From contig CT868097.1 of the NCBI GenBank assembly GCA_000165425.1, forward strand, positions 564,867-584,889: 20,023 bases of DNA, read 5' to 3'. This DNA is from Paramecium tetraurelia (Eukaryota). Below, in pieces: positions 1-20,023 of the stretch; positions within the stretch are counted from its first letter, which is position 1, and each line of letters begins with the position of its first letter. The position numbers and the translations under genes were made by a program. The notes beneath the pieces were generated by a model. It saw only the letters and a list, made by a program, of their open reading frames with translations, made no database searches and was not told where the DNA came from.

Positions 1-182
1 TTTTAACAAAAAAAATCAATTTCTTTTAGTAGCATGGACTATTATGAAAACTCCTCTTATTAAATTAGAGGAGCATGAAGAGGTTTTGGTTTCTATAGTA
101 CCATCATTGTCTCTTCCATCTACTTTAAAATATCTCTTTAAGGTTAAAAATTTGGAGTCACATCGCTTTCCAATTTAATCAT
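1..182 (-). CDS. 5' part of a hypothetical protein gene, running off the left edge
   Basis: ATG at 182 opens a TGA-free frame (code 6): MIKLESDVTPNFQPQRDILKQMEETMMVLQKPKPLHAPLIQQEEFSQQSMLLKEIDFFCQ... to the window edge. It is divergent from RPL5. Confidence 0.6.
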
Positions 183-581
183 GAATACTTATTAACTGAA
201 AAATAATTAATTCAAATTAATTATTTATTAAATGAAAAACAAATAATAAATCCATTTAAGAAGACAATCATAGATGCTCATCTATAATATACAAAACAAT
301 TCGATATTTATTATATTATAAAGTATCCTATAAAGTCTCTGATCTATTTCAGGTTTAATTCTACATTATATACATAAAATGAACTCAGAAGATTGTTATA
401 GGATATTATTTTTTTAATGAATTATTAATTATATCTAATGAACTTTGAGCCATTCATGTTGCAAATTGGAAAATTAGGGAGATAGTATTTAATTCTAAAT
501 AATTATAACTCAGAATTATGGATTATTTATATATAAGTATTAGTGCCTAATTTGTGAAAATTCAAATCTTTTTAATAATTA

Positions 582-1549
582 ATGGCATTTGTTAAGCTTG
601 TTAAAGGAACACCCTATTTCAAAAGATTCTAAACTAAATTCAGAAGACGAAGAGAAGGAAAGACTGATTATTATGCAAGAAGCAGATTGATCGTGTAAGA
701 CAAGGATAAATATAACTCACCAAAATACAGATTTGTAGTTAGACACACAAACACAAAGATCATTTGCTAAGTGATCTATGCTACCTTAAAGGGAGACAAG
801 GTAGTGGCTGCTGCTGAATCTACTGAATTAAAGAGATTTGGTTTAACAAGTGGTTTGACTAACTATGCTGCTGCCTATGCCACTGGTTTATTATTGGCCA
901 GAAGAACACTTAAAACATTGAAGATGGATAAGTTTTATGAAGGCAACAAAACCATCGATGGAAACTTGTATGATGTTGCTGAAAAGGAAAACCCAGAGAG
1001 AAGACCATTCTTTGCCGTACTTGATATTGGTTTGGTCAGATCAACTCTCGGAAACAGAGTATTCGCTGCCTTAAAGGGAGCAGCTGATGGTGGTATTCAC
1101 ATCCCACACAACAACAGAAGATTCCCAGGATTCTCTGTTGATAATGACAAGAAAGAAAAATATGATGCCAATGTTCACAAGGACAGAATCTTTGGTGTTC
1201 ATGTTGATAAATACATGGCTCTCTTATAAAAGGAGAAGAAGACTAACAAAGATGGAAGATCTAAGTTCGATGTCTAATTCCACAATTGGGAATAAACCTT
1301 GAAGACTGTAATATAATAAATTAATATTAATAGGCTGGTGTCAAATCAGTTTAAGAATTGTTCAAGAAGATTCACGATGAAATCAGAAAGAATAGTGACA
1401 GAGTAAAGAGAGGTGCTAAATAAAATCCAAAGAGAGATCACACCAAATACAGAGCCAAGAGATTAAACGCTAAATAAAGAAGAGCTAACGCTTTAAAAAA
1501 GATCGATATAGCCACCAAATAAGCTGCTAAATTAAAGAAGAAGGCATGA
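582..1549 (+). CDS. RPL5: 60S ribosomal protein L5 (uL18), 313 aa; intron 1308-1333 (26 nt)
   Basis: [33 protein letters not shown]...QDKDKYNSPKYRFVVR...GLTNYAAAYATGLLLARR...GAADGGIHIPH are hallmark eukaryotic L5 motifs. In-frame TAAs fall at conserved Gln positions. The spliced frame ends at TGA 1547-1549. Confidence 0.98.
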
Positions 1550-1740
1550 TTTCATTTATATTTGGTACATTATAAAATATTCCAATCTTTTTCGATTTTG
1601 TCTTGACTAACCTAATTAATATCACTACTTGACATTTATTATTTATATATCCAAATATGTCTCATGGCCACTTTAATGGTTATATAAGAATAATCTTTTT
1701 GTTATTTCAATTAATTTCAAGAATAATAAAAATATAATAT

Positions 1741-2783
1741 ATGTCAACTTAGTATAGAATACCATCTAACGATAATTATATTCGAGACTTAGAAAACATT
1801 TCTCAAAGGTAATTTTGAATTTATACTAAAAGAGAGCGTCATGGATTGTTTAATCAGCCTCCTCCATTACTAATAGGTGATTAATATAACGACGCATTAA
1901 AAAGTAATGAATTACTTATTTAAATATAGGCTAAGGCAAGGAGAAAGGTGTATTGGTCAATAAAAAATTATAAAAAAAGCATGAACCTACTTTATTTTTA
2001 GAGCCTGGATATACAACATTAAATGATCCTTACAAAGATTAATTTAAAGCCAAATAAATTTACGACAAAGAAAGAGAATTAGCAATTAAAAATCCAAATT
2101 GTTTCAAGCCAAATGATCATGTTAAATCAATGTAAATATATGCACTGAGTATCAAAGTAAACATTCAGAATTTGAACACATGAAAGAATTCAATGATAAA
2201 GTATTTAATACAAGAACTCCAAAAGGAGATGTTAGGACTTAAGCTCGAAATTTCTTAACCAATCCTGCAAAGAAAGGATTAGGCAGAACAACCACTAATA
2301 ATTTATTTGGATAAATTGAATATATACCTGATCCGTATGACAGACAAGAGGAATTAGATAGATAAGATAGAATTAAACATAGAAGCAAATTTTTACCAGG
2401 AACAACTAGGTTTATTACAACAAGTCACGGCAATCGACCATTTACGGCTGATGGAATATTACTTGATGGAGCAGGATATTTATCAGGTAATTACTTTATT
2501 CTAATACCAATAAGCGAAAAAAAGACCACTGTATAAAGGTGCCCCTTTTAGACCTGCTAACTAAAATAAAAATGGATTTTAAGGAACATTTGAAGTGCTC
2601 TAATACATGGAAGAAGGTGTACCAGATCCTAAAACGAAATAAAATACCTTCTAAAAATTAAGTGCCACTTAAACCTATGAAAATCCTTGGAGACCAAATT
2701 CAAATGGAACCTTTGCTCGACCATGTCCTAGTGTTTCGTAGCAATTAAGACATAGAAGCGTAGGATCAAATTAAAAATCTTGA
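1741..2783 (+). CDS. C4orf47/CFAP96 (UPF0602)-like ciliary/centrosomal protein; introns 1809-1832, 1904-1929, 2132-2157, 2487-2514
   Basis: Four short introns give one continuous frame ending at TGA 2781-2783. Motifs ERHGLFNQ..LIGDQY, GYTTLNDPY, RNFLTNPAKKGLG, EYIPDPY, PFRPAN and PWRP resemble the C4orf47 family (recognised by eye). Confidence 0.75.
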
Positions 2784-2876
2784 AAATAAAGAATACATTA
2801 ATTGCATTAATTTGAATGTTTAATTAGACGTAATGAATGCAATTCTCAATAAGTACTCTGTTTAAACTATATATAA

Positions 2877-3365
2877 TCATTTCCCTTCTCTTTGTTCTAT
2901 TTATGCATATTTTCTATAAATCCTTCTCATAACAAATAATATTTACTCATATAGTTTTTGTGAGTCAAACTAGTCTATGTCACAAAATTGAATTTCTCCT
3001 CCTTTCAGATATTCAAAAGGTAATCCTAGTAAAACACATTTCTGAGAAAAAATTATTGCTTAAGGAATGTAATACTGTTAAGGAAATTACTTATTAAAAA
3101 AGTAATCTTGCAATTATTTTTAGGATTAATAGAAATCATACAATTTGTCATCAAACATTTTTTAATTCTCACTTTTGATATTTAAGTTTCCAACTTTATA
3201 TTATCTCTATTCCAAAATTCCAAATTGATCATATATTGTCAGATGCTCTGTTTTTGACTATTGTAATTCTTTAATAACCAGATCAATGATAGGAATTACA
3301 TTTTTATGTTTTGGCTATTGAAATCCCAATAAAAGATGAAGAGGTTGTTTCTATAATCCTTGCAT
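2877..3365 (-). CDS. NUS1: NUS1/NgBR-like subunit of cis-prenyltransferase (dehydrodolichyl-PP synthase complex), 162 aa, intronless
   Basis: TGA-free frame ending PQAIIFSQKCVLLGLPFEYLKGGEIQF...YRKYAQIEQREGK*. This matches the NgBR/Nus1 C-terminus (Y..CEQRLGK, RxG motif) and its GFLPW..RLTEI block. Confidence 0.7.
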
Positions 3366-3843
3366 TAATTTTAAAATGTAATAAAAACAATAATTTCATA
3401 TTTTCTGAATATTTTCGAATGAACGTGTTTTCACCTAATAATTTAAAAAAAATTATATTATAGTATCGAATCTTAGAAAATATGTATCAATACTGTAATT
3501 AAAATATTAACAATATGCATTAAATGTTTTGATTGATTGAAATATTATTCGAACAATCTAATTGATTTTTGTGATTGCACATATTCATGTTCATGTATAT
3601 TGTGTTGTGAAGTACTCCTATGTTTAAGAATGCCATATTAATTTTTTTTGATCACTAACTCAGCTTGTTGGTCATAAATTCTGGAATGGTAGTTTCCTTT
3701 GATTACTACTTTTTAACTCTTAATAACAGCAGCACCTACTTATAGAATTGATTCCTTACGTTTTTGGAGTTGTTTAATTCACAATTTAAGTTTCTAATTG
3801 TTAATTCAATAATAATTAATTTTTAGAACAAAATTTTGATTCA

Positions 3844-4748
3844 ATGACCGCAACTATGCAATAACATCATTAATTGATGGACGAAGAGTCTGAATTAGTA
3901 AATAAGATACTCAAGGAAATTTAAATCGATTCTAATATGTGCAACGAACAAGTGCAACTTATGATTGATAATACTCCGGTATATTTTCCTCATCAACCTT
4001 ATGAAGTCTTGAAGGTTTATATGGAAAGTGTAATAAATGCATTAAATAAGAAGTAGAATGCATTGTAAATTATAAAAATCACTATGGAAGATTGGAATCA
4101 CCAACTGTAACAGGTAAAACCCTATCCTTGCTCTGTGCCTCCCTAGCATGGTTAAAGAAGAACAGAAAAGATTAATAGAATTCTGATTAGCCTAAGAATA
4201 TTAAGATTATATATTCATCAAGAACTTACACTCAATTAAAATAAGTGGTCATAGAATTGAAGAAGACAATCTACAAACCCAATATTTCAATACTTGCCTC
4301 AAGAGATCAATATTGCATCAGAGAGGAAGGTTGCTGAAGGAATAGACTTTTCTGATGAATTATGCAGAGCTATCTTCTTAGTAGGTGTTCCCTATCCAGT
4401 TATAATAGATAATCGTTTTATCGAAAAAATGAACTACTTGGATAGGGTCTTCAACGATCTAGAATTCAATCATTAATAAAGAATAAAAAGCTCTAAATGG
4501 TACACTCAACAAGCTATTCGTGCTACAAATCAAGCTATTGGAAGAGTTATTCGGCATATCAATGATTATGGGTATAATATTGTGTTAATAATTTTAGAAT
4601 TGTTTATTTATGTGATAAAAGATTTGAATACAAAGAAATTAGACAAGGATTATCAAAATGGGCATAGCCAGCTATCTAACCTTGGATCAATGATGACGAT
4701 GTGATTCAGCAAACCAAGTCATTTTTCAACAGATCAATGTTGGAGTGA
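3844..4748 (+). pseudogene. RTEL1: RTEL1-like (XPD/FANCJ/RTEL1 family) helicase pseudogene with a large internal deletion and frameshift; introns 4065-4090, 4572-4597
   Basis: The N-terminal block VYFPHQPY...[21 protein letters not shown]...KIIYSSRTYTQL...LASRDQYCI stops at TGA 4335-4337. A different frame starts at the same point with KVAEGIDFSDELCRAIFLVGVPYP...[25 protein letters not shown]...CDKRF and ends at TGA 4746-4748. Confidence 0.88.
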
Positions 4749-7921: not shown

Positions 7922-8797
7922 TTAAACAGTTTTTTTATATATTAATTAACCAAAATTTTTATTTAATCCCTAATAAATATCTACTTTAATCTATTTAATA
8001 ACAATTAATGATTTTTTTAGTTCAAAATAATATGATTCATCTCACAAAAATATAAAGTAAACTAATCTTAATTAAAAATTTATCTTTATCTTTAATTGAA
8101 TTAGTTAACTCAGTAATGTAAAGTATTTAGTTTAAAAATTAATATATGTTTACATTAAAAACAATGAACATTCACATAATGTATTATGAAATCTAATGAA
8201 TGATACTTCAGTAATTTAAGATTTAAGTCATAAGCGGCTTTAATTGCTCGGTACTAAATAATCAAAATGGGTTTTTGTTTATGGACGAAAGTAAATCAAT
8301 AAATTAAAAATCGGATGCCAAAAATTATAAATAGATTCAACTTTATGTTTATTTTTTATTATTTAAGATAAAAGATCGAATAAATGAAAAAGAGAAATTC
8401 AAGAATAAATATAATAAAGAGCCATTAGTTATATAATTATTTGAATTCCTTTTAAAAAATCTGAAATAAAATTAAGCTTGTTTTTTTAATTATCAATCAA
8501 GATGAATAGATTATTGTAAAGTCAAATAATTTTTGAAGATAATAATTTAAGTTATTTAGGAATCTATCTTCAGATAACTTTTTATGGATAAATAATAAAT
8601 ATACTCTTTTAGAATTTCAATATTAATGTTAGACTAGGTTGAAAAAATTTTTAATGTCAGAAATTCTAGCAGATTACTATTCATTAATTAATACTAGAAT
8701 ACTTTATAAAGATGGAATTCAATGTCATCATCTTTGATATCAATTGCAAAATAGTGATTTGAGTTTTTTTTATATTTATCCATTTTTGTCTGTATAA

Positions 8798-9460
8798 ATG
8801 CTGCAGAAAAGGATGAAAGGGATGTAAAAACTTAATTATTTTGAGCAGATGTAAGAATTGACAAGTATCTCATAAAATAATGATGATGAATTGAATTCTA
8901 CTTGCTAGTCTATATAAGTTCCAGGGTTTAAAAGGCACTTTGGAAACAATTTGACATTATTTCATATTTGGGGTGAGCCTTTGATAACAATTGGACCACA
9001 TTGTAAAACATTTATAAATGATTAGTTTAGGGCCTTTAACATTATGCATGATTATTTCATTTGGTGGAGCTAGCTATTTGTTAATTTACGAGATAGCCAT
9101 TAGAAAAGGACTTTATGTTTATTACTTTTCAATTTTTATAGCAGCACTATAAATGCTTAGTTACTTGATAACTGCCCTAAAAAATCCAGGCATTGTGACT
9201 AGTACTAGAGAATACAAAGGGATATTATAGTGTATAGTAAGAAATATATATAATTAAAACCTTATTAGGTTTGTAATAATCCAAGAAATATAGGTTCGTT
9301 ATATCATTGTGAAGATTGCGATGTTTGCATTTCTGGATTTGATCATCATTGTCCTTGGACAGGAAAATGTATAGGAAGAGGAAACATAGGTTCCTTTTAT
9401 ATATTCGTAACTATGATACCGATATATATTGTATATTTCGTCATAGTTTCCTTATTATGA
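8798..9460 (+). CDS. DHHC-type palmitoyl acyltransferase (zDHHC), about 200 aa; introns 9003-9030, 9237-9268
   Basis: IGPHWP, two TM segments, KNPGIV, then CIVCNNPR...[31 protein letters not shown], which is the canonical DHHC cysteine-rich domain. The start could be any of several nearby ATGs. Confidence 0.93.
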
Positions 9461-13031: not shown

Positions 13032-14809
13032 TCATTTAACTGCATCATAAAATAGAGAAATTATTAAATGAAGCTACTCATCTTTATTATTTAAAGCATC
13101 AACATAATATTGATTTAATGCTTACAAGTCATTTTAATGCTTCTCTCTCATTTCTTGCATTTAATCTGAAGATTTATTCTTTAGGATTATGGAATTTAAT
13201 TTCTAGATTTATTCATTTTATTTAATTAATTATTTGCACAAATCTATAAAATTTGAATTTTATTATTCTCTTATTTCATTGATTTCCCTATCTCTTTATT
13301 CTGACTACTGCATATAGTATTTTAGTTACTTTCATATGATATATAAAATACTTCTTAATTTACCTATTAGTCTTAATGTCGTTCCAATTACTTTGCCATT
13401 GAGTTTCTCCTTGAATGTGAACTTTATTAGTAGCAACTCAATTATTTTTCCAGCAGCGTTATCTATTTTGATTTCTCAATTAATTATAATTACAACTTCG
13501 TCACATTTGTTTCATCGGTGTATTTTAATGATTAATTATTATGAGAAATAGCGTGATCTATCACAGATTTATTTTAAGATTAGAAAAAATCAAAACATGT
13601 TGATTTTGGAGACTGTCCAAATCTTTAATCAATTTCAAGTATATAACTATTGTTCGATGAATAAACTCCTTGGTGTCTTAAACTTTCAAAAGGCTATTTC
13701 CTTTCATATTAATTCATGTTTTAATATTCTTCTAATTCAAATTTAAACATCTCCATCTTCTTTTTGAAAGATGCAGCTTACTTTTCTGACTCATAAAGTT
13801 AACCTTTTAATTTTTTTAACTCTACCTCATACTAAAATTCTTTCCATTCTAATTTTTTTTTGTTATCTTCTATTAATTTTTGATTTTTAGCTTTTAAATT
13901 TTCTATAGTCTTTTATTCCTTCGGATCTTTCACTAAAATCTATTGTTATTCTGGCTCTATTGATCTTGCTGTTGGTGGGCAAGACAATAACTATGATTTC
14001 AGGGTTTGGTTCTTTTATTGCAATTTGGCTATCTCCTTCTATTAGTTTTAAACCACTTAATTCAAATCTTCAATTGATTGCTTGCATTTTTCAATTTCTT
14101 TGATGTATTCCTCAAATTTATTGAATACTTCTTCAAAATCGCAACAATTTAGTTTTTATAAACAGAACAATTCCGAGTCGTATAGTTGTTCATATAATTC
14201 ATTTAATTATGTAATTTTGTTTTGTTGATCAATGATTTTACTTTGATATTCTGTTTTCATTAATTCAAATTACTTATTTTGTTGGGCGATAATGTTATCT
14301 TTTGTATTGATATTTTCTTCCAAGGAGATAATAGTATTTGTAGTCTAATGTTCAAAATATCCACACTCTTGAAAACTGCCGATGTCATTAATTTAATTTT
14401 AGAGCAACCCCATTATTTCTGATTATTATTGTGGTAATAATTATTACATCATTTCTACTAATTCTTCCTAATTTGCTCTCAACAGAGTGTCAATAAAATA
14501 CTGTATAAATTTAAGCAATTCTAAATTACAATCAGAAAGTGAAATGTCATCATCAAAATTTCTAATTTCTAGTTTGCATTTTTTCCTTGCTAATTAGATA
14601 TTTGTAATTATTAGGTTCCAAAATGGTCTTCTAAAGTCATATCCTAAACTAAAAATTTTGCAATTCATATATACTAGTCTTCTATCAATTAAGCAAACAG
14701 AATGCCATCTTAAATTTCCGTAAAGTTATGTATCTGTCTTTTTTAGTAATTCCATTTGTTTAGCTATATCAATAGTGATTATTGTTACAAGTGTTATAGC
14801 ACTTTTCAT
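13032..14809 (-). CDS. Hook-family (HOOK/CCDC88-like) coiled-coil protein, 567 aa; introns 14764-14788, 14649-14674, 13329-13351
   Basis: The spliced N-terminus MKSAITLLNKWNYQKRQIHNFTEIQDGILFAQLIEDYL...WNLIITNIQ...ELLKFIQYFIDTLLRANQEELVEMMQQLLPQQQSEIMGLLQ resembles the CH-like Hook domain. A long E/K/Q coiled coil follows. The C-terminal EQLHLIISLFYD resembles Hook EEKLIVSAWYN. The CDS is solid; the family call is by eye. Confidence 0.75.
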
Positions 14810-15591
14810 AATAAAAAAAATTTGATAAAAATATTATATGTATTAAAGAAAGCCTTAAATTATGAAACTTTTCTCATTTTGAATTGTTTAATTACTTATT
14901 TACTATTAAATAGAGCGAAATACAAGCTTGATAATAATTTTATCAAACTTTACCAAATCTCTAATTATATAAAGATGTTTTACTTCATTTTTAAGAGTGA
15001 AAAATTGAATCAGTATCTCAAAATTGTAGAATTATTTCTTACATTGCCTCCTGTTTTTCTGAAAAATAAATCCAATAGAAATACAATATTACAAATCTCG
15101 AAAAAACTCCTGATATTGAAATTTTTCTATTAATTATAAATGAGCCATTTTTCTTAATACTTAATTTCTGCAAGATTATAACACATAAAAATGAATATCA
15201 ATCTTACCAATTGATTTAAGAAGATAATTTAATAAATTAACCAATAGATAATTTAAAATATATTTTAAGAATCATTTTAAGATATGGAATTTCACAGATC
15301 ATAACGAGAAATTCATTCTTTAAGTGTTTCGTTTCCTGTTTTTGTGTAAAATAATAGTATAAATTTTGTTTAAATTCTCAAAAACATGAAAATAAAAAAT
15401 AAAAACTACCATAAACATAGGAAGTACTATTTATCCTCAAAGAAGATCTTTAATGTTCTTTAGTTTCGAATTTAGAGTCACTCAGCCCATTCTCGGTGAG
15501 GTTTAATGAAAATCCTTAACAATAAAAATAAATATAGATTTCTAAGAAATGCCAAATACAAGGGTGAAAATGTGTTTAGTATTTATATTTT

Positions 15592-16114: not shown

Positions 16115-17184
16115 TTATAATAATTTATCATATAAACTATTTTGATGTTATGAGTACATTGAAAAAATCATAATTACAAATATACATAAAATGATTAATT
16201 AAGAATGCAATATCCTAATGAGAATCTACATTTTATGTAAAATTTGAAACTAGTTTCTAAAATTTATTTTAAAATTAGAGTTCTATCAAAAGAAATAATT
16301 ATAATTACATGTGAACCTTTAACTGAGATTTTTATCGTGGTCTTAAAATATCAGAGATATGAAGAAAGTTGTAAATGGTTTATTTTAGTTAAATTTCTAT
16401 ATTAAGGATTTAATAACAAGAACTTTTTTTTCTACTAAAAATAATCTTATTATTTATTTTGGATTTCCTATAATTCCTGTAATTTCTATTTTAGAAAACT
16501 TTCTTTAAAAAGTAGAAATAAATAAACTTTTTATACTAATCGGTTATGTTTGTATTAATGAAATCGATTTTTAGATAATATTTTTGGATAAGAGAGCATT
16601 CTTTTTCATATTTATGCTTTACCTATTTAGTTTTTGAGATATCATAATTAATCTGTTTTGGAAATACGATAAAATTTTAGTTAATTGAGGTTTAAGCTTT
16701 AAGAATATTTGATCAAATTTAAGTCATTTTTAGGGAGAAATGGATTTCAGGATTATATTCATCCTAATATTATACTACAAGAACTGTTTATTAAAATATA
16801 AGTGTGATTTATAATCAGCATTTTATTTCAATAATGCATAGTATAAAAATATAACTAAGATTGAATTACAAAGGGCTCAAATTAAGGAATCATTTGAAAA
16901 GAAAACGAATAAAAGTTTAAAAATAATCAAATTTTCAACATAATTATTAACTATTCTAACAATATGAATAAAATGAATTAGTTTTCCTATTTGTAAATAA
17001 TTAAATATCAAGATTTAAAAAAAGCTCTGATTAGATTTCAAGAATTTGTATTATTTAAAATAATTAAATCAATTATATAAATATTTAATTTTAGAAGACT
17101 TTAAATGGAAATTCAATAAATTTTGATAAAAATGTTCTCCTTTCCTCTTTGTATTGATCACTTATTCATTGTTTGATTAAAAAA

Positions 17185-20023
17185 ATGAATTTGAATGGAA
17201 ATTAATTTAATCTTTTTCATACTAGACACATTAATCATTCAATTCATGAATAATTTGATCGATATTTAAATATACAAATTCCACCATATTAGGCTGTTTA
17301 ATAGGTGTTTTAGGAGTTAAATAAGATAAATGAAATTATTTAGCTTGTAATCAAAATTAGAAAAGACATCATTTATACTTAGTATAAAGAATCAAACACA
17401 AGTAATTTATTCTTAATACTAGATGACACATGTTCAATGTTTGGAACGTATTAAAATCTATAAAACTATCTTGGTAAATATTTTGAAATAGAAATGAAAC
17501 CGTAATATAGGAAATATTAGTTAACTAAATATGGAATCATCGATTTATTAGTTTTTAGTTTTTTACATAAAAGCAGAAGTTTTCATAGAGTAATAACAAA
17601 AGGAATAGCTCCTTAAATATCATGTTTGTATAGTTGGTATTAGGAATTTATTGCAGAATTTGAAATCAACAACAATATTGATCCCAATTATCTGCCAAGG
17701 AAGGAGAAAAGAGTTTAAATATAGAAAAACAAATAGCAAAAAAGTAACCCTGAACTGATAGAATCCATTAAGGATGACAAACTTATTATTTTTAAAGATT
17801 TAATTGAGAATGGCGCTTCAATTTATACTGTATCTTTAAGAGATAAGGAGAAAATGCTTGTTCCTCATTTAGTGTGTGCATTTGCAAGATTAAATTATGC
17901 ATAATATTTATAAAGTAAAAATGTGGATTGGGAATGTGAAGATGATGACAGAATGACTGCCTTTATTTAGTATGCTATCAGAAGTGAATCTAAAGAAATG
18001 ATTGAATATCTACTTAATCTAAAAGTAAATTTAGAACACAAAGATATTTAAGATAGAACTCCATTTTATTATGCTTGTTCATTAGGATAATTATGTTATT
18101 ATTAGGTTCCTTGTAGAAAGAGGAGCTAATATAAATGCTAGAACTGCTTTGGGAAGAACTCCATTTTCAAAGGCAAGCTTTTTAGGATTGTATAATGTGA
18201 TTGAATTTCTTCTTCAATAACCAAACATAGACTTTAATTATGCGGATAAGCAAGGAAGAAATGCCTTACACAATGCAGTTTTTGGCCCTAAAGGAGGTAG
18301 AGATGGAAGAAAGGTTGGCACTTGGTGTTATGATAGTCCTTTGATTGCTTAATTATTACTTGAACATGGAATGGATGTGGAAGCAAAAGACAAAGATGAA
18401 AATACTCCATTACATGTGGCAGCATCAAGTGAAGCTTTAAGTTCCATTCCTGTTTTAATAGCTTTTGGGTGCGATATCAATAGAAGAAATAAATGGGGAG
18501 AAACTGCTTTAATTATAGCAGCAAAATTTAATCATCATGAAACTGCTAAATTATTAATTTAAAATGAAGCCGATTATTTCTTTGAAAATGAGGGATATAC
18601 AGCAATGGAAATTGCTGCAAAAAATGATTAATTTGAAGTATTTCAATTTCTATTAGATAAAATGAAGCCACAATTATTGGAATTAGAAAGGTTAAGATAA
18701 TATAAGTTGCAATCAGTTCTCTAATCTTTAATGAAAATTACCAAGAGTTTCAAAGCAAATAAATATATAAGATATTTTTTAGAAAATTTCTAACCATATT
18801 ATGATTAAGAGCATGCAGGATTGATAATTGAGATGCAAGACGGGTAAAACGAACTTATGTAAAGTTATTTAAAGAATTAAATTATCTCATAAGAATAAAT
18901 AACTAATGCTTTTGAACTTTGTTTGAAAAGAAAAAACATGTCAATTTTCAAATAATTATGCCTTCATACCTAAATCTAATATACAGTCTGCCTTTAAAAA
19001 TCATTAATTACAATGTTGCTCGAATCACCAGAATTAGATATATTACTGTTTTAATTTAATATTGATTGGTTTAACTATAGAAGCAAATTGGGTGAAACCT
19101 TTTTACATAAACTTATAGAGAAGAGAAAGACTGAGACTTTTTTAAAAATACTAAATTTATTTTAAGAAATAATAGATGAATAGGGTAAAAGCAAAGTTAA
19201 AAATATCTTTTTAAATTCTATTACTAAAAATGATATTTATAATGTTTTAATATTCTAAAATTCTGGTGCATCTACGATCATCGAAATAGCTGTAATTCAT
19301 AAATTTATGGATATATATTAAATGCTTGACAATTTTATTTCAGTTAACTATGGTTCAAAATAAGGACTCAAATTTAAATTGATTAATTATTCTATTGAAT
19401 TAGATCATCTTACAAAGTTACCTCAAATTTAACTATAAGATGAAGAAAATTATAAATTTATTAAAAAATTTTCAGAAATAACATAATTAACAGATAAAGA
19501 ATTGTAATTTTTTGAGACAGTCTTAAGATAACATAAATAAGGTAAAATTAATTTATCCTAATTTTATTCATAAATTTAATCCAAAAAATAAGTTATTGTT
19601 GTTGAATCAGAGGATCATCTAAAATAATCATGTATTGATATTATTCAAAATTATACTATTTTGGGAGTTGATATTGAGCATTACTCTGATAAAGTAGATG
19701 AATTCAAAATATCCTTTGCTTGCACTATTTAATTATCTACTGTAGAAATGGATTATATAATTGATGTTATGAAATTGAGGCATGTCTGTAATAAGTATTT
19801 AACTCCGATTTTCGAGAATTAAAAACTATTAAAGATTTTTCATGGTTGCGAGGTTGATTTAAGAGTTCTTTTTAGTGATTTAAAATTAATGGTTAAAAAT
19901 ATATTAGACACTAGCAAAATTGATATGGCTTTAATTAAATCACCTAATGCTTAGTCTTTTAAAAAATTATGCAAGCAATATTTAAACATCCCTTTTAACC
20001 AACTTTATCAAACATCTGATTGG
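17185..20023 (+). CDS. ankyrin-repeat plus Rrp6/RNase D-like DEDD 3'-5' exonuclease fusion protein; +1 frameshift near 18094; 3' end outside the window
   Basis: Ankyrin repeats at about 17850-18660 (DRTPFYYAC, GRTPFSKA, GRNALHNA, ENTPLHVAA, GETALIIAA, GYTAMEIAA), with weaker ones near 19090. Exonuclease domain from about 19590: ILGVDIEHY..ACTIQLST.EMDYIIDVMKLR...IFENQKLLKIFHGCEVDLRVL...NILDT...QTSDW. The start is uncertain (17185 in frame, or 17105 with a further indel). It could be a young pseudogene or an assembly error. Confidence 0.85.

Follow-up and report, generated by a model that had tools for sequence, protein, structure and literature searches.

A 20,023-nucleotide stretch of Paramecium tetraurelia DNA (assembly GCA_000165425.1, contig CT868097.1, positions 564,867 to 584,889; hereafter the window) carries at its right-hand end a gene whose predicted product joins ankyrin repeats to an exonuclease domain of the Rrp6 type. 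The evidence laid out below makes it likely that we are dealing with one gene, in all likelihood intact and transcribed, for a protein of about 1026 amino acids, built of a GST-C-like domain, ankyrin repeats, a row of degenerate repeats and the exonuclease, and that it belongs to a conserved ciliate family that stands beside Rrp6. Our best reading of the sequences is that this family is a ciliate-wide, exosome-independent Rrp6 paralogue. Rrp6 is usually seen as the exosome's nuclear partner; the sister branch described here appears to have lost all of the modules that dock onto the exosome and to have acquired two modules for protein interaction, and its catalytic residues are kept intact across Paramecium, spirotrich-type and rumen-type ciliates. 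The family thus points to a pathway acting on RNA 3' ends that is conserved but has yet to be studied, in model organisms well suited to genetic work (RNA interference by feeding, GFP tagging). What is new is the conserved architecture of this Rrp6 paralogue, including its N-terminal GST-C-like domain.

Gene model, frame breaks and transcription

The window is AT-rich (GC 0.20–0.32 in 1-kb steps) and was translated with NCBI table 6, the ciliate code; its coding reading requires both TAA and TAG as sense codons. Under this code frame 2 of the plus strand is open from 18071 to 20023, a run of 651 codons without TGA that is still open at its 3' end. Because TGA-free runs average about 57 codons at about 25% GC (an estimate from composition), an open run of this length is far beyond chance. 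It bears out a preliminary description of this DNA, which had reported one TGA-free frame leading from ankyrin repeats through a linker into an exonuclease. Frame 1 of the plus strand also holds an open reading frame (ORF), at 17185..18204. A word-indexed protein search returned two Paramecium orthologues of 1026 amino acids each, P0001 from P. pentaurelia and P0002 from P. sonneborni, which are 82% and 72% identical, respectively, to the exonuclease part of the window and which their source records label only "unnamed protein product" or "3'-5' exonuclease domain-containing protein". In the alignment of both, orthologue residue 1 falls at 17105 and residue 964 at 20023, and both place the start of the gene at the ATG at 17105. 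The start at 17185 given in the preliminary description must therefore be moved upstream; an intron and several frame breaks had been missed there as well. P0001 is laid out on three forward frames, with residues 1–23 in frame 2, 24–41 in frame 3, 43–321 in frame 1 and the remainder in frame 2. Within the frame-1 part, a probable intron is suggested by the two orthologue proteins (Table 1), at a site over which there are zero RNA reads.

At its other end the gene runs out of the window. After the final QTSDW of the window both orthologues continue RIRPLPQQMIEYARLDS; this continuation reads RIRPLPQQMIEYARLDSASLL, and the protein ends 62 residues beyond that W. Since both orthologues carry the ExoIII motif (Y-x3-D) directly after QTSDW, as YARLD, this motif should exist just past the window end, much as was expected when the window was first described as stopping short of ExoIII. 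Since the orthologues stop 62 residues past the final W of the window, no HRDC-like domain can follow. The collinearity of the 1026-residue orthologues and the continuous reading frame thus uphold the proposal that one gene fuses ankyrin repeats to a catalytically intact DEDD exonuclease.

The first part of the gene, 17105–18094, is spread over three frames in the window, which has one base too many near each of 17172, 17228 and 18095. Public sequencing reads were therefore compared with the window at these and other points: 24 runs were listed, 20 of them (from 10 studies) contain the stretch, and four were compared base by base. Sampled words of the stretch are present at 0.88–0.93 in 19 of the 20 runs and at 0.52 in one RNA run. 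A DNA contig (X5; 7987 nt, word depth about 130) covers 17015–20023 and is without one base at each of 17172, 17228, 17959 and 18095 and without two at 17969. RNA reads (X23) and an RNA-library contig (X20) agree with it at some of these points (Table 1). The read version gives the orthologue-like ankyrin motif MTPIFYAI at 17959–17970, and gives the orthologue residues SLGQLFII at the 18095 point, through which the orthologues read as SLGQLFIIRFLVE. Near the window end, where a cluster of substitutions sets the window apart from all four compared runs, the read version restores the orthologue-like SLEKL and HLDK. Because independent assemblies that lack the extra bases restore orthologue residues, the frame breaks are most likely errors of this assembly, and the gene itself is probably intact. 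Introns were considered as the cause of the frame changes and rejected, since no more than a single base separates neighbouring orthologue exons and the independent assemblies do not contain those bases.

Three frameshifts in the first 1 kb, the one-plus-two-base change and the six clustered substitutions all lead away from the orthologue sequence, as they would in a recently disabled pseudogene or decaying duplicate in the assembled strain. We consider this unlikely: the level of sampled words in 19 of 20 runs is as given above, all four compared runs agree with one another and with the orthologues against the window, the other 651 codons are open, and indels together with one tight cluster at the window end form the pattern of assembly error, with no scattered substitutions listed. 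Five small insertions and a cluster of six substitutions lie within 3 kb, all of them in coding sequence and all away from orthologue residues. Indel errors of this kind in an intact gene would break automatic annotation, and the remaining window sequence may hold similar gene-splitting errors.

Low-level transcription of the gene is seen in two runs, whose stranded oligo-dT reads fall on 17505–19221 and 19626–20023 at a depth of about 0.2–8; in all of these reads the first mate is on the minus strand, which in most stranded libraries means plus-strand RNA.

Domain architecture of the predicted protein

The exonuclease domain occupies the 3' part of the gene. Residues 511–651 of the frame-2 ORF match Pfam family PF01612 (DNA_pol_A_exo1) with E 4e-20 and 72.8 bits, covering profile positions 4–141 of 173, and P0001 matches the same family with E 1.8e-30. 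The acidic residues of ExoI (VDIEH, 19667–19681) and ExoII (FHGCEVD) are intact and lie where they had first been noted, and the ExoIII residues of the orthologues are Y976 and D980 in P0001 numbering. These five positions (D847, E849, D909, Y976 and D980) are invariant in all 14 full-length members of the family (alignment A1), and they are kept in every row of the 68-row tree described below, 33/33 on the ankyrin-exonuclease side and 35/35 on the HRDC side.

When the C-terminal 265 residues of P0001 were searched against the sequences in the PDB, 41 distinct sequences were matched, and the top 13 of these were Rrp6/EXOSC10 (E 5.4e-27 to 5.4e-22; best values 5.4e-27 for T. brucei, 3.1e-23 for human and 6.4e-23 for yeast). 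Weaker matches were to a reconstructed diDNase ancestor (3.7e-15), to exonuclease domains of apicoplast polymerases (8e-9) and then to NrnC, with EXD2 (2.3e-6), RNase D (2.4e-6), Mut-7 (6e-5) and WRN (9e-5) further down. An AlphaFold2 (AF2) model of P0001, made from a 14-sequence alignment, has a mean predicted local distance difference test (pLDDT) score of 75, with about 80–94 in the exonuclease part. In a fold search the exonuclease domain of this model matched T. brucei RRP6 best (Z 24.3, root-mean-square deviation (rmsd) 2.8, 232 aligned, model residues 750..1019); RNase D gave Z 23.4 with rmsd 1.9 over 191 aligned residues of the core only (816..1016), human Rrp6 Z 23.1 and yeast Rrp6 Z 22.4. 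The alignment with the Rrp6 structures starts at P0001 residue 748 or 750, a range that includes an Rrp6-specific stretch before the core. By sequence and by modelled fold, then, the exonuclease is closest to Rrp6/EXOSC10, in keeping with its first assignment as Rrp6-like. A search with the exonuclease of P0127, another member of the family, found 12 proteins at E <= 1e-10, namely two ankyrin-exonuclease proteins and ten canonical Rrp6, of which nine are named fungal records. An ESM Atlas search with residues 520–1026 gave a best score of 0.75 and no lead.

PF01612 spans DNA as well as RNA enzymes, and the matches to the diDNase ancestor, EXD2 and WRN might be taken to indicate a DNA 3'-5' exonuclease (WRN-exo, EXD2 or diDNase-like) with a part in, for example, repair or programmed DNA elimination. 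Those matches, however, fall short of the best Rrp6 match by 12 to 22 orders of magnitude, and the Rrp6 fold match takes in the Rrp6-specific stretch before the core (748/750..1019 vs 816..1016 for RNase D); we hold a DNA-directed enzyme to be decidedly unlikely.

The modules that surround the exonuclease in canonical Rrp6/EXOSC10, whose architecture is PMC2NT-EXO-HRDC with PMC2NT serving for Rrp47/Mtr4 docking, were looked for with Pfam. P0001 has no PMC2NT (PF08066), no HRDC (PF00570) and no Mut7-C domain at E up to 1, and the 14 members yielded neither PF08066 nor PF00570 when matches up to E 0.05 were accepted. The exonuclease domain ends shortly after ExoIII, and only 34 residues follow the Pfam match in P0001. 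Canonical docking to the exosome is unlikely because PMC2NT and HRDC are absent and so little protein lies beyond the exonuclease. The earlier idea of an exosome-independent enzyme is borne out to the extent that both modules are indeed missing; independence itself is what their absence suggests.

Upstream of the exonuclease the protein is built of repeats. Five Pfam ankyrin families match the frame-2 ORF (Ank_2 E 1.1e-31), ankyrin families match the frame-1 ORF too, and P0001 matches Ank_2 with E 3e-45. P0001 residues 205–520 are modelled with pLDDT of about 90 and reach Z 27–30 to ankyrin-repeat chains. The following region, residues 520–745, is predicted as pairs of short helices (pLDDT 60–90); alignments of long ankyrin chains with the model extend across residues 205..738, though at an rmsd of about 8 Å, and ankyrin-like motifs such as GETFLHKLI are kept in alignment A1. 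Because of the paired helices, the long-chain alignment and the conserved motifs, this region is best read as degenerate ankyrin repeats, so that what had first been called a helical linker would be a further length of ankyrin-like solenoid.

The N-terminal domain was absent from the preliminary account of the architecture. A hidden Markov model (HMM) built from eight non-Paramecium N-termini of the family matches P0001 at 101–206 (30.8 bits) and P0002 at 102–206 (30.6 bits). Across the 14 members Pfam finds Arc1p_N_like in two (best 1.3e-6), GST_C in three and GST_C_3 in two; the Arc1p_N_like match of P0127 scores 29.1 bits, above the cut-off of 27. Searched against the PDB, a profile of nine N-terminal stretches of the family (A2) matched the GST-like domain of human EPRS (4.1e-8), AIMP3/eEF1E1 (1.2e-5) and AIMP2 (2.8e-3); various GSTs and eEF1-gamma came next. 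For the fold search of this region we used an AF2 model of the P0127 N-terminus (pLDDT 83, predicted template modelling score (pTM) 0.76), which shows the helical GST-C half only; the best matches were EPRS (Z 10.3, rmsd 2.8, 103 aligned) and AIMP3 (Z 9.8), values that are middling for a small helical domain, followed by yeast GluRS (8.9), eEF1B-gamma (8.9) and AIMP2 (8.1). The N-terminus is thus predicted, from profiles and models, to be GST-C-like and nearest to the domains that assemble aminoacyl-tRNA synthetase complexes.

Relatives among ciliates and neighbouring genes

An exhaustive HMMER search with the C-terminal 265 residues of P0001 against 1.84 billion representatives gave 5297 matches at E <= 1e-3. 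Among the best 150 of these 5297 (50%-identity representatives), 14 combine ankyrin repeats with a C-terminal exonuclease. Pfam searches of 38 of the 150 (the 34 top matches and four with a late exonuclease domain) identified these 14, and custom HMMs run on all 150 gave the same 14. HRDC is present in 103 of the best 150, as judged with an HMM made from five Pfam-defined HRDC stretches. When the full-length alignment A1 was used in a word-indexed search, ankyrin proteins dominated the output, and PF01612 was present in three of the 120 matches listed.

The position of the family was examined with two unrooted trees of exonuclease domains. A quick tree of 150 such domains (152 rows, two incomplete ones dropped) placed all 16 ankyrin-exonuclease rows, together with 21 short or N-terminally different rows, in a set of 37 rows that contains no HRDC row and has an SH-like approximate likelihood ratio (SH-aLRT) support of 98. 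A more careful tree of 68 rows was made from every third HRDC row, all ankyrin-exonuclease rows, 13 of the 21 short rows and translations of four of the metagenome loci described below. In it a branch with support 98/83, which is present in 98% of 200 bootstrap trees, sets the 35 HRDC rows apart from the others, among them all 20 ankyrin-exonuclease rows. Since the trees are unrooted, the ankyrin-exonuclease side is either a clade or a grade beside canonical Rrp6; the best reading of these sequence trees is that the family is a paralogous branch beside Rrp6/EXOSC10. Rrp6 is its nearest solved and named relative, as would also be expected if the protein were the canonical Paramecium Rrp6/EXOSC10 orthologue, seated on the nuclear exosome with ankyrin repeats in place of PMC2NT. 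Such a protein should not lack PMC2NT, HRDC and a C-terminal tail all at once, nor fall across the 98/83 branch from 35 of 35 HRDC-bearing rows, and we find this identity very unlikely. Seven proteins of 460–530 amino acids (P0018, P0020, P0046, P0057, P0061, P0068 and P0117) form a well-supported subgroup on the ankyrin-exonuclease side, with a C-terminal exonuclease and no ankyrin match to the custom HMMs; incomplete gene calls from short contigs may account for them, or they may represent another architecture.

A scan of metagenome contigs yielded 421 stretches encoding relatives, from which 79 loci were kept. Of these, 32 match from P0001 residue <=271 to about residue 990 and so hold the GST-like or ankyrin part together with the exonuclease. 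Stop-codon use was determined for 33 loci: 24 are fully open under the standard code, three (L020, L022 and L026) need TAA and TAG as sense codons to be open, L018 has its most open reading with TGA as a sense codon, and five are open under none of the codes, as introns or errors would leave them. The contig ends of 12 loci were inspected. C4A4/G4T4, the spirotrich-type telomere repeat, stands at both ends of L018, and G4T4 at one end of L026. Repeats of the CCCCAAT type stand at both ends of L036, L049 and L055 and at one end of L053 and L065, and the contig ends of the other five of the 12 show no telomere repeats. (CCCCAAT)n has been reported as the telomere repeat of rumen ciliates (bioRxiv 10.1101/2022.01.05.474053). 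The ends of L036 and L049 carry head-to-head telomere repeats (GGGGATT... into ...CCCCAAT), which look like an assembly artefact. A giant-virus origin of the standard-code contigs of 33–36% GC was considered and set aside, their low ORF density being unlike that of viruses (L002 and L010 have six ORFs of at least 100 amino acids per roughly 10 kb).

Two of the telomere-bearing contigs hold the whole architecture. L055 (4197 nt) is occupied by a single ORF, 158–4075, with ankyrin repeats and PF01612. L018 (3715 nt), which has in-frame TGA codons, has its ankyrin part in one frame and its exonuclease in another, with a 32-nt GT..AG intron at 2840–2871 between them; a programmed +1 frameshift was considered here and rejected, since the intron joins the frames exactly. 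That the whole architecture sits on gene-sized, two-telomere chromosomes is separate evidence for the ankyrin-exonuclease fusion being one gene. The alternative of two adjacent Paramecium genes, one for an ankyrin protein and one for an exonuclease, read through by chance, could draw on a gap in RNA coverage at 19222–19625. It has against it the continuous reading frame, orthologue models collinear over 1026 amino acids and the same domain order on single-ORF, two-telomere chromosomes of other ciliates, and is exceedingly improbable. Together these loci show that the architecture is older than the split of at least three ciliate lineages. As to whether the architecture is widespread and already characterised, a point raised in the preliminary description, it is conserved across ciliate classes and is no oddity of Paramecium, and a full-text literature search, most subscription journals and supplements being outside its scope, brought up no paper in which an Rrp6-type exonuclease is fused to ankyrin repeats or to a GST-like domain.

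The other coding regions recognised in the window are listed after the parts of this gene in Table 1. The split of the Trm1 reading frame could reflect a short intron or another indel, and the extension of the L5e frame probably crosses an intron or passes the true stop.

Table 1. Features of the window; positions count from its first nucleotide.
Feature	Position	Strand	Remarks
GST-like/ankyrin/Rrp6-like exonuclease gene (predicted)	17105..20023	+	5' complete; 3' cut by window end, ~62 codons missing
Extra base, frame 2 to frame 3	17172	+	orthologue alignment switches frame; absent from X5, the sole coverage
Extra base, frame 3 to frame 1	17228	+	orthologue alignment switches frame; absent from X5, the sole coverage
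Probable 21-nt intron, GTA...TAG	17402-17422	+	in frame, no TGA; both orthologue proteins skip exactly these 7 codons
Predicted GST-C-like domain, aminoacyl-tRNA synthetase complex kind	17428..17745	+	P0001 residues ~101-206
Canonical ankyrin repeats, ~8-9	17764..18667	+	Pfam Ank families, AF2, fold match
1 extra base at 17959, 2 extra at 17969	17959-17970	+	absent from X5 and from 2/2 X23 RNA reads
Extra base, frame 1 to frame 2	18095	+	inside ankyrin repeat; absent from DNA contig X5 and RNA-library contig X20
Helical-pair region, putative degenerate ankyrin-like repeats	18692..19366	+	AF2, fold match, conserved motifs
Rrp6-like DEDD-y exonuclease domain	19373..20023	+	Pfam match 19601-20023; cut by window end before ExoIII
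ExoI D-x-E	19670..19678	+	D 19670-72, E 19676-78; D847 and E849 of P0001
ExoII aspartate of FHGCEVD	19856..19858	+	D909 of P0001
Six clustered substitutions	19960-20000	+	window differs from all 4 compared runs
Ribosomal protein L5e gene, PF17144	558-1100	+	E 6.7e-77; open frame on to 1880, tail unlike L5
DHHC palmitoyltransferase domain start, PF01529	ORF 8738-9457	+	E 2.6e-17, at ORF end
Trm1-type N2,N2-dimethylguanosine tRNA methyltransferase, PF02005	9724-11141	-	two overlapping ORFs, E 3.4e-56 and 2.3e-34
Aldehyde dehydrogenase, PF00171	11550-12873	-	split over at least 2 ORFs
707-codon open frame, Q/K/E-rich, coiled-coil-like	13151-15271	-	no clear Pfam family; SlyX 1.5e-4, below its cut-off

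Possible functions and comparison with known systems

From what is known of Rrp6 and RNase D, the exonuclease would be expected to trim RNA 3' ends by two-metal DEDD-y chemistry. It would probably work apart from the exosome core, given the missing PMC2NT, HRDC and C-terminal exosome-binding region, and, by the nature of these domains, the GST-like domain and the ankyrin solenoid may bring the enzyme to its target through protein-protein contacts.

Several points weigh against the interpretation given at the outset, that of an intact, transcribed Rrp6-type gene of a conserved ciliate family. ExoIII lies beyond the window and is seen only in the orthologues, at 72–82% identity. The window copy is frameshifted three times in its 5' third, and with four runs compared and a single DNA contig spanning the breaks at 17172 and 17228, there is a small chance of a decaying allele in the source strain. 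In the four compared runs no RNA read or contig lies over 17000–17500 or 19222–19625, and because of these gaps no transcript spanning from ankyrin repeats to exonuclease is shown in this species. A preference for RNA over DNA as substrate is suggested only by closeness to Rrp6. The Paramecium N-terminus is modelled poorly (pLDDT 27–57 over residues 1–200), and the confident model is that of P0127, a distant member; with it, Foldseek gave no match at E <= 0.001, although the ten best rows were all synthetase-complex GST-like domains (best E 3.3e-3), and a Z near 10 is middling for a small helical domain by the fold-search tool's own note. Finally, the spread outside Paramecium is read from telomere repeats and stop-codon use.

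The GST-like head suggests a concrete, testable hypothesis. It might dock the exonuclease onto a ciliate synthetase/elongation-factor complex, where the enzyme could carry out tRNA 3'-end (CCA) trimming or quality control at the site of aminoacylation; we offer this as a speculative idea, with a small chance of being right, and found no paper on an Rrp6-type exonuclease attached to such a complex. A different role, in the trimming or turnover of small RNAs in the developmental scan RNA (scnRNA) and iesRNA pathways, in the manner of Nibbler or Mut-7, had been put forward in the preliminary description. Ciliates do have large developmental small-RNA pathways, and a DEDD-y exonuclease outside the exosome that is fused to protein-interaction domains would suit them. 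However, the similarity to Mut-7 is weak (6e-5, vs 5e-27 for Rrp6), expression was low throughout in RNA runs whose conditions are not stated, the literature on Paramecium, Rrp6, ankyrin and exonuclease gave nothing relevant, and the N-terminal domain points toward translation-related complexes. No result links the gene to developmental small RNAs, and we now regard this role as improbable.

Set beside Rrp6/EXOSC10, the Paramecium protein is alike in its DEDD-y domain with all five catalytic residues and in having there its best sequence (5.4e-27) and fold (Z 24.3) match, including the stretch before the core. It differs in lacking PMC2NT, HRDC and the C-terminal exosome-binding region, in the roughly 800 residues of GST-like and ankyrin sequence that precede its exonuclease, and in its place on a tree branch separate from the HRDC-bearing Rrp6 proteins. 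RNase D, which acts in bacterial tRNA 3' processing, shares the DEDD-y fold (Z 23.4, rmsd 1.9, 191 aligned) but is the weaker match in sequence (2.4e-6), and its exonuclease is followed by two HRDC domains, with ankyrin and GST-like parts lacking, whereas the Paramecium protein has no HRDC. Mut-7, Nibbler and the EXD proteins likewise belong to the PF01612 superfamily and act outside the exosome, but the similarity is weak (Mut-7, 6e-5) and no Mut7-C domain was found in P0001 (Pfam, E up to 1). For the N-terminus the nearest counterparts are the GST-like domains of synthetase complexes and eEF1 (EPRS, AIMP3/eEF1E1, AIMP2, GluRS/Arc1p, eEF1B-gamma and Plasmodium p43), which supply the best profile and fold matches; in the ciliate family, however, the GST-C half appears to be attached to a nuclease and not to a synthetase or an elongation factor. 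The overall plan recalls RNase L, which likewise places an ankyrin solenoid at the N-terminus, ahead of a domain that degrades RNA, and whose ankyrin repeats are among the fold matches (Z 26.7 and 26.3). RNase L, though, is a KEN-type endoribonuclease with a pseudokinase, unrelated to the DEDD fold, so the likeness is one of analogy only.

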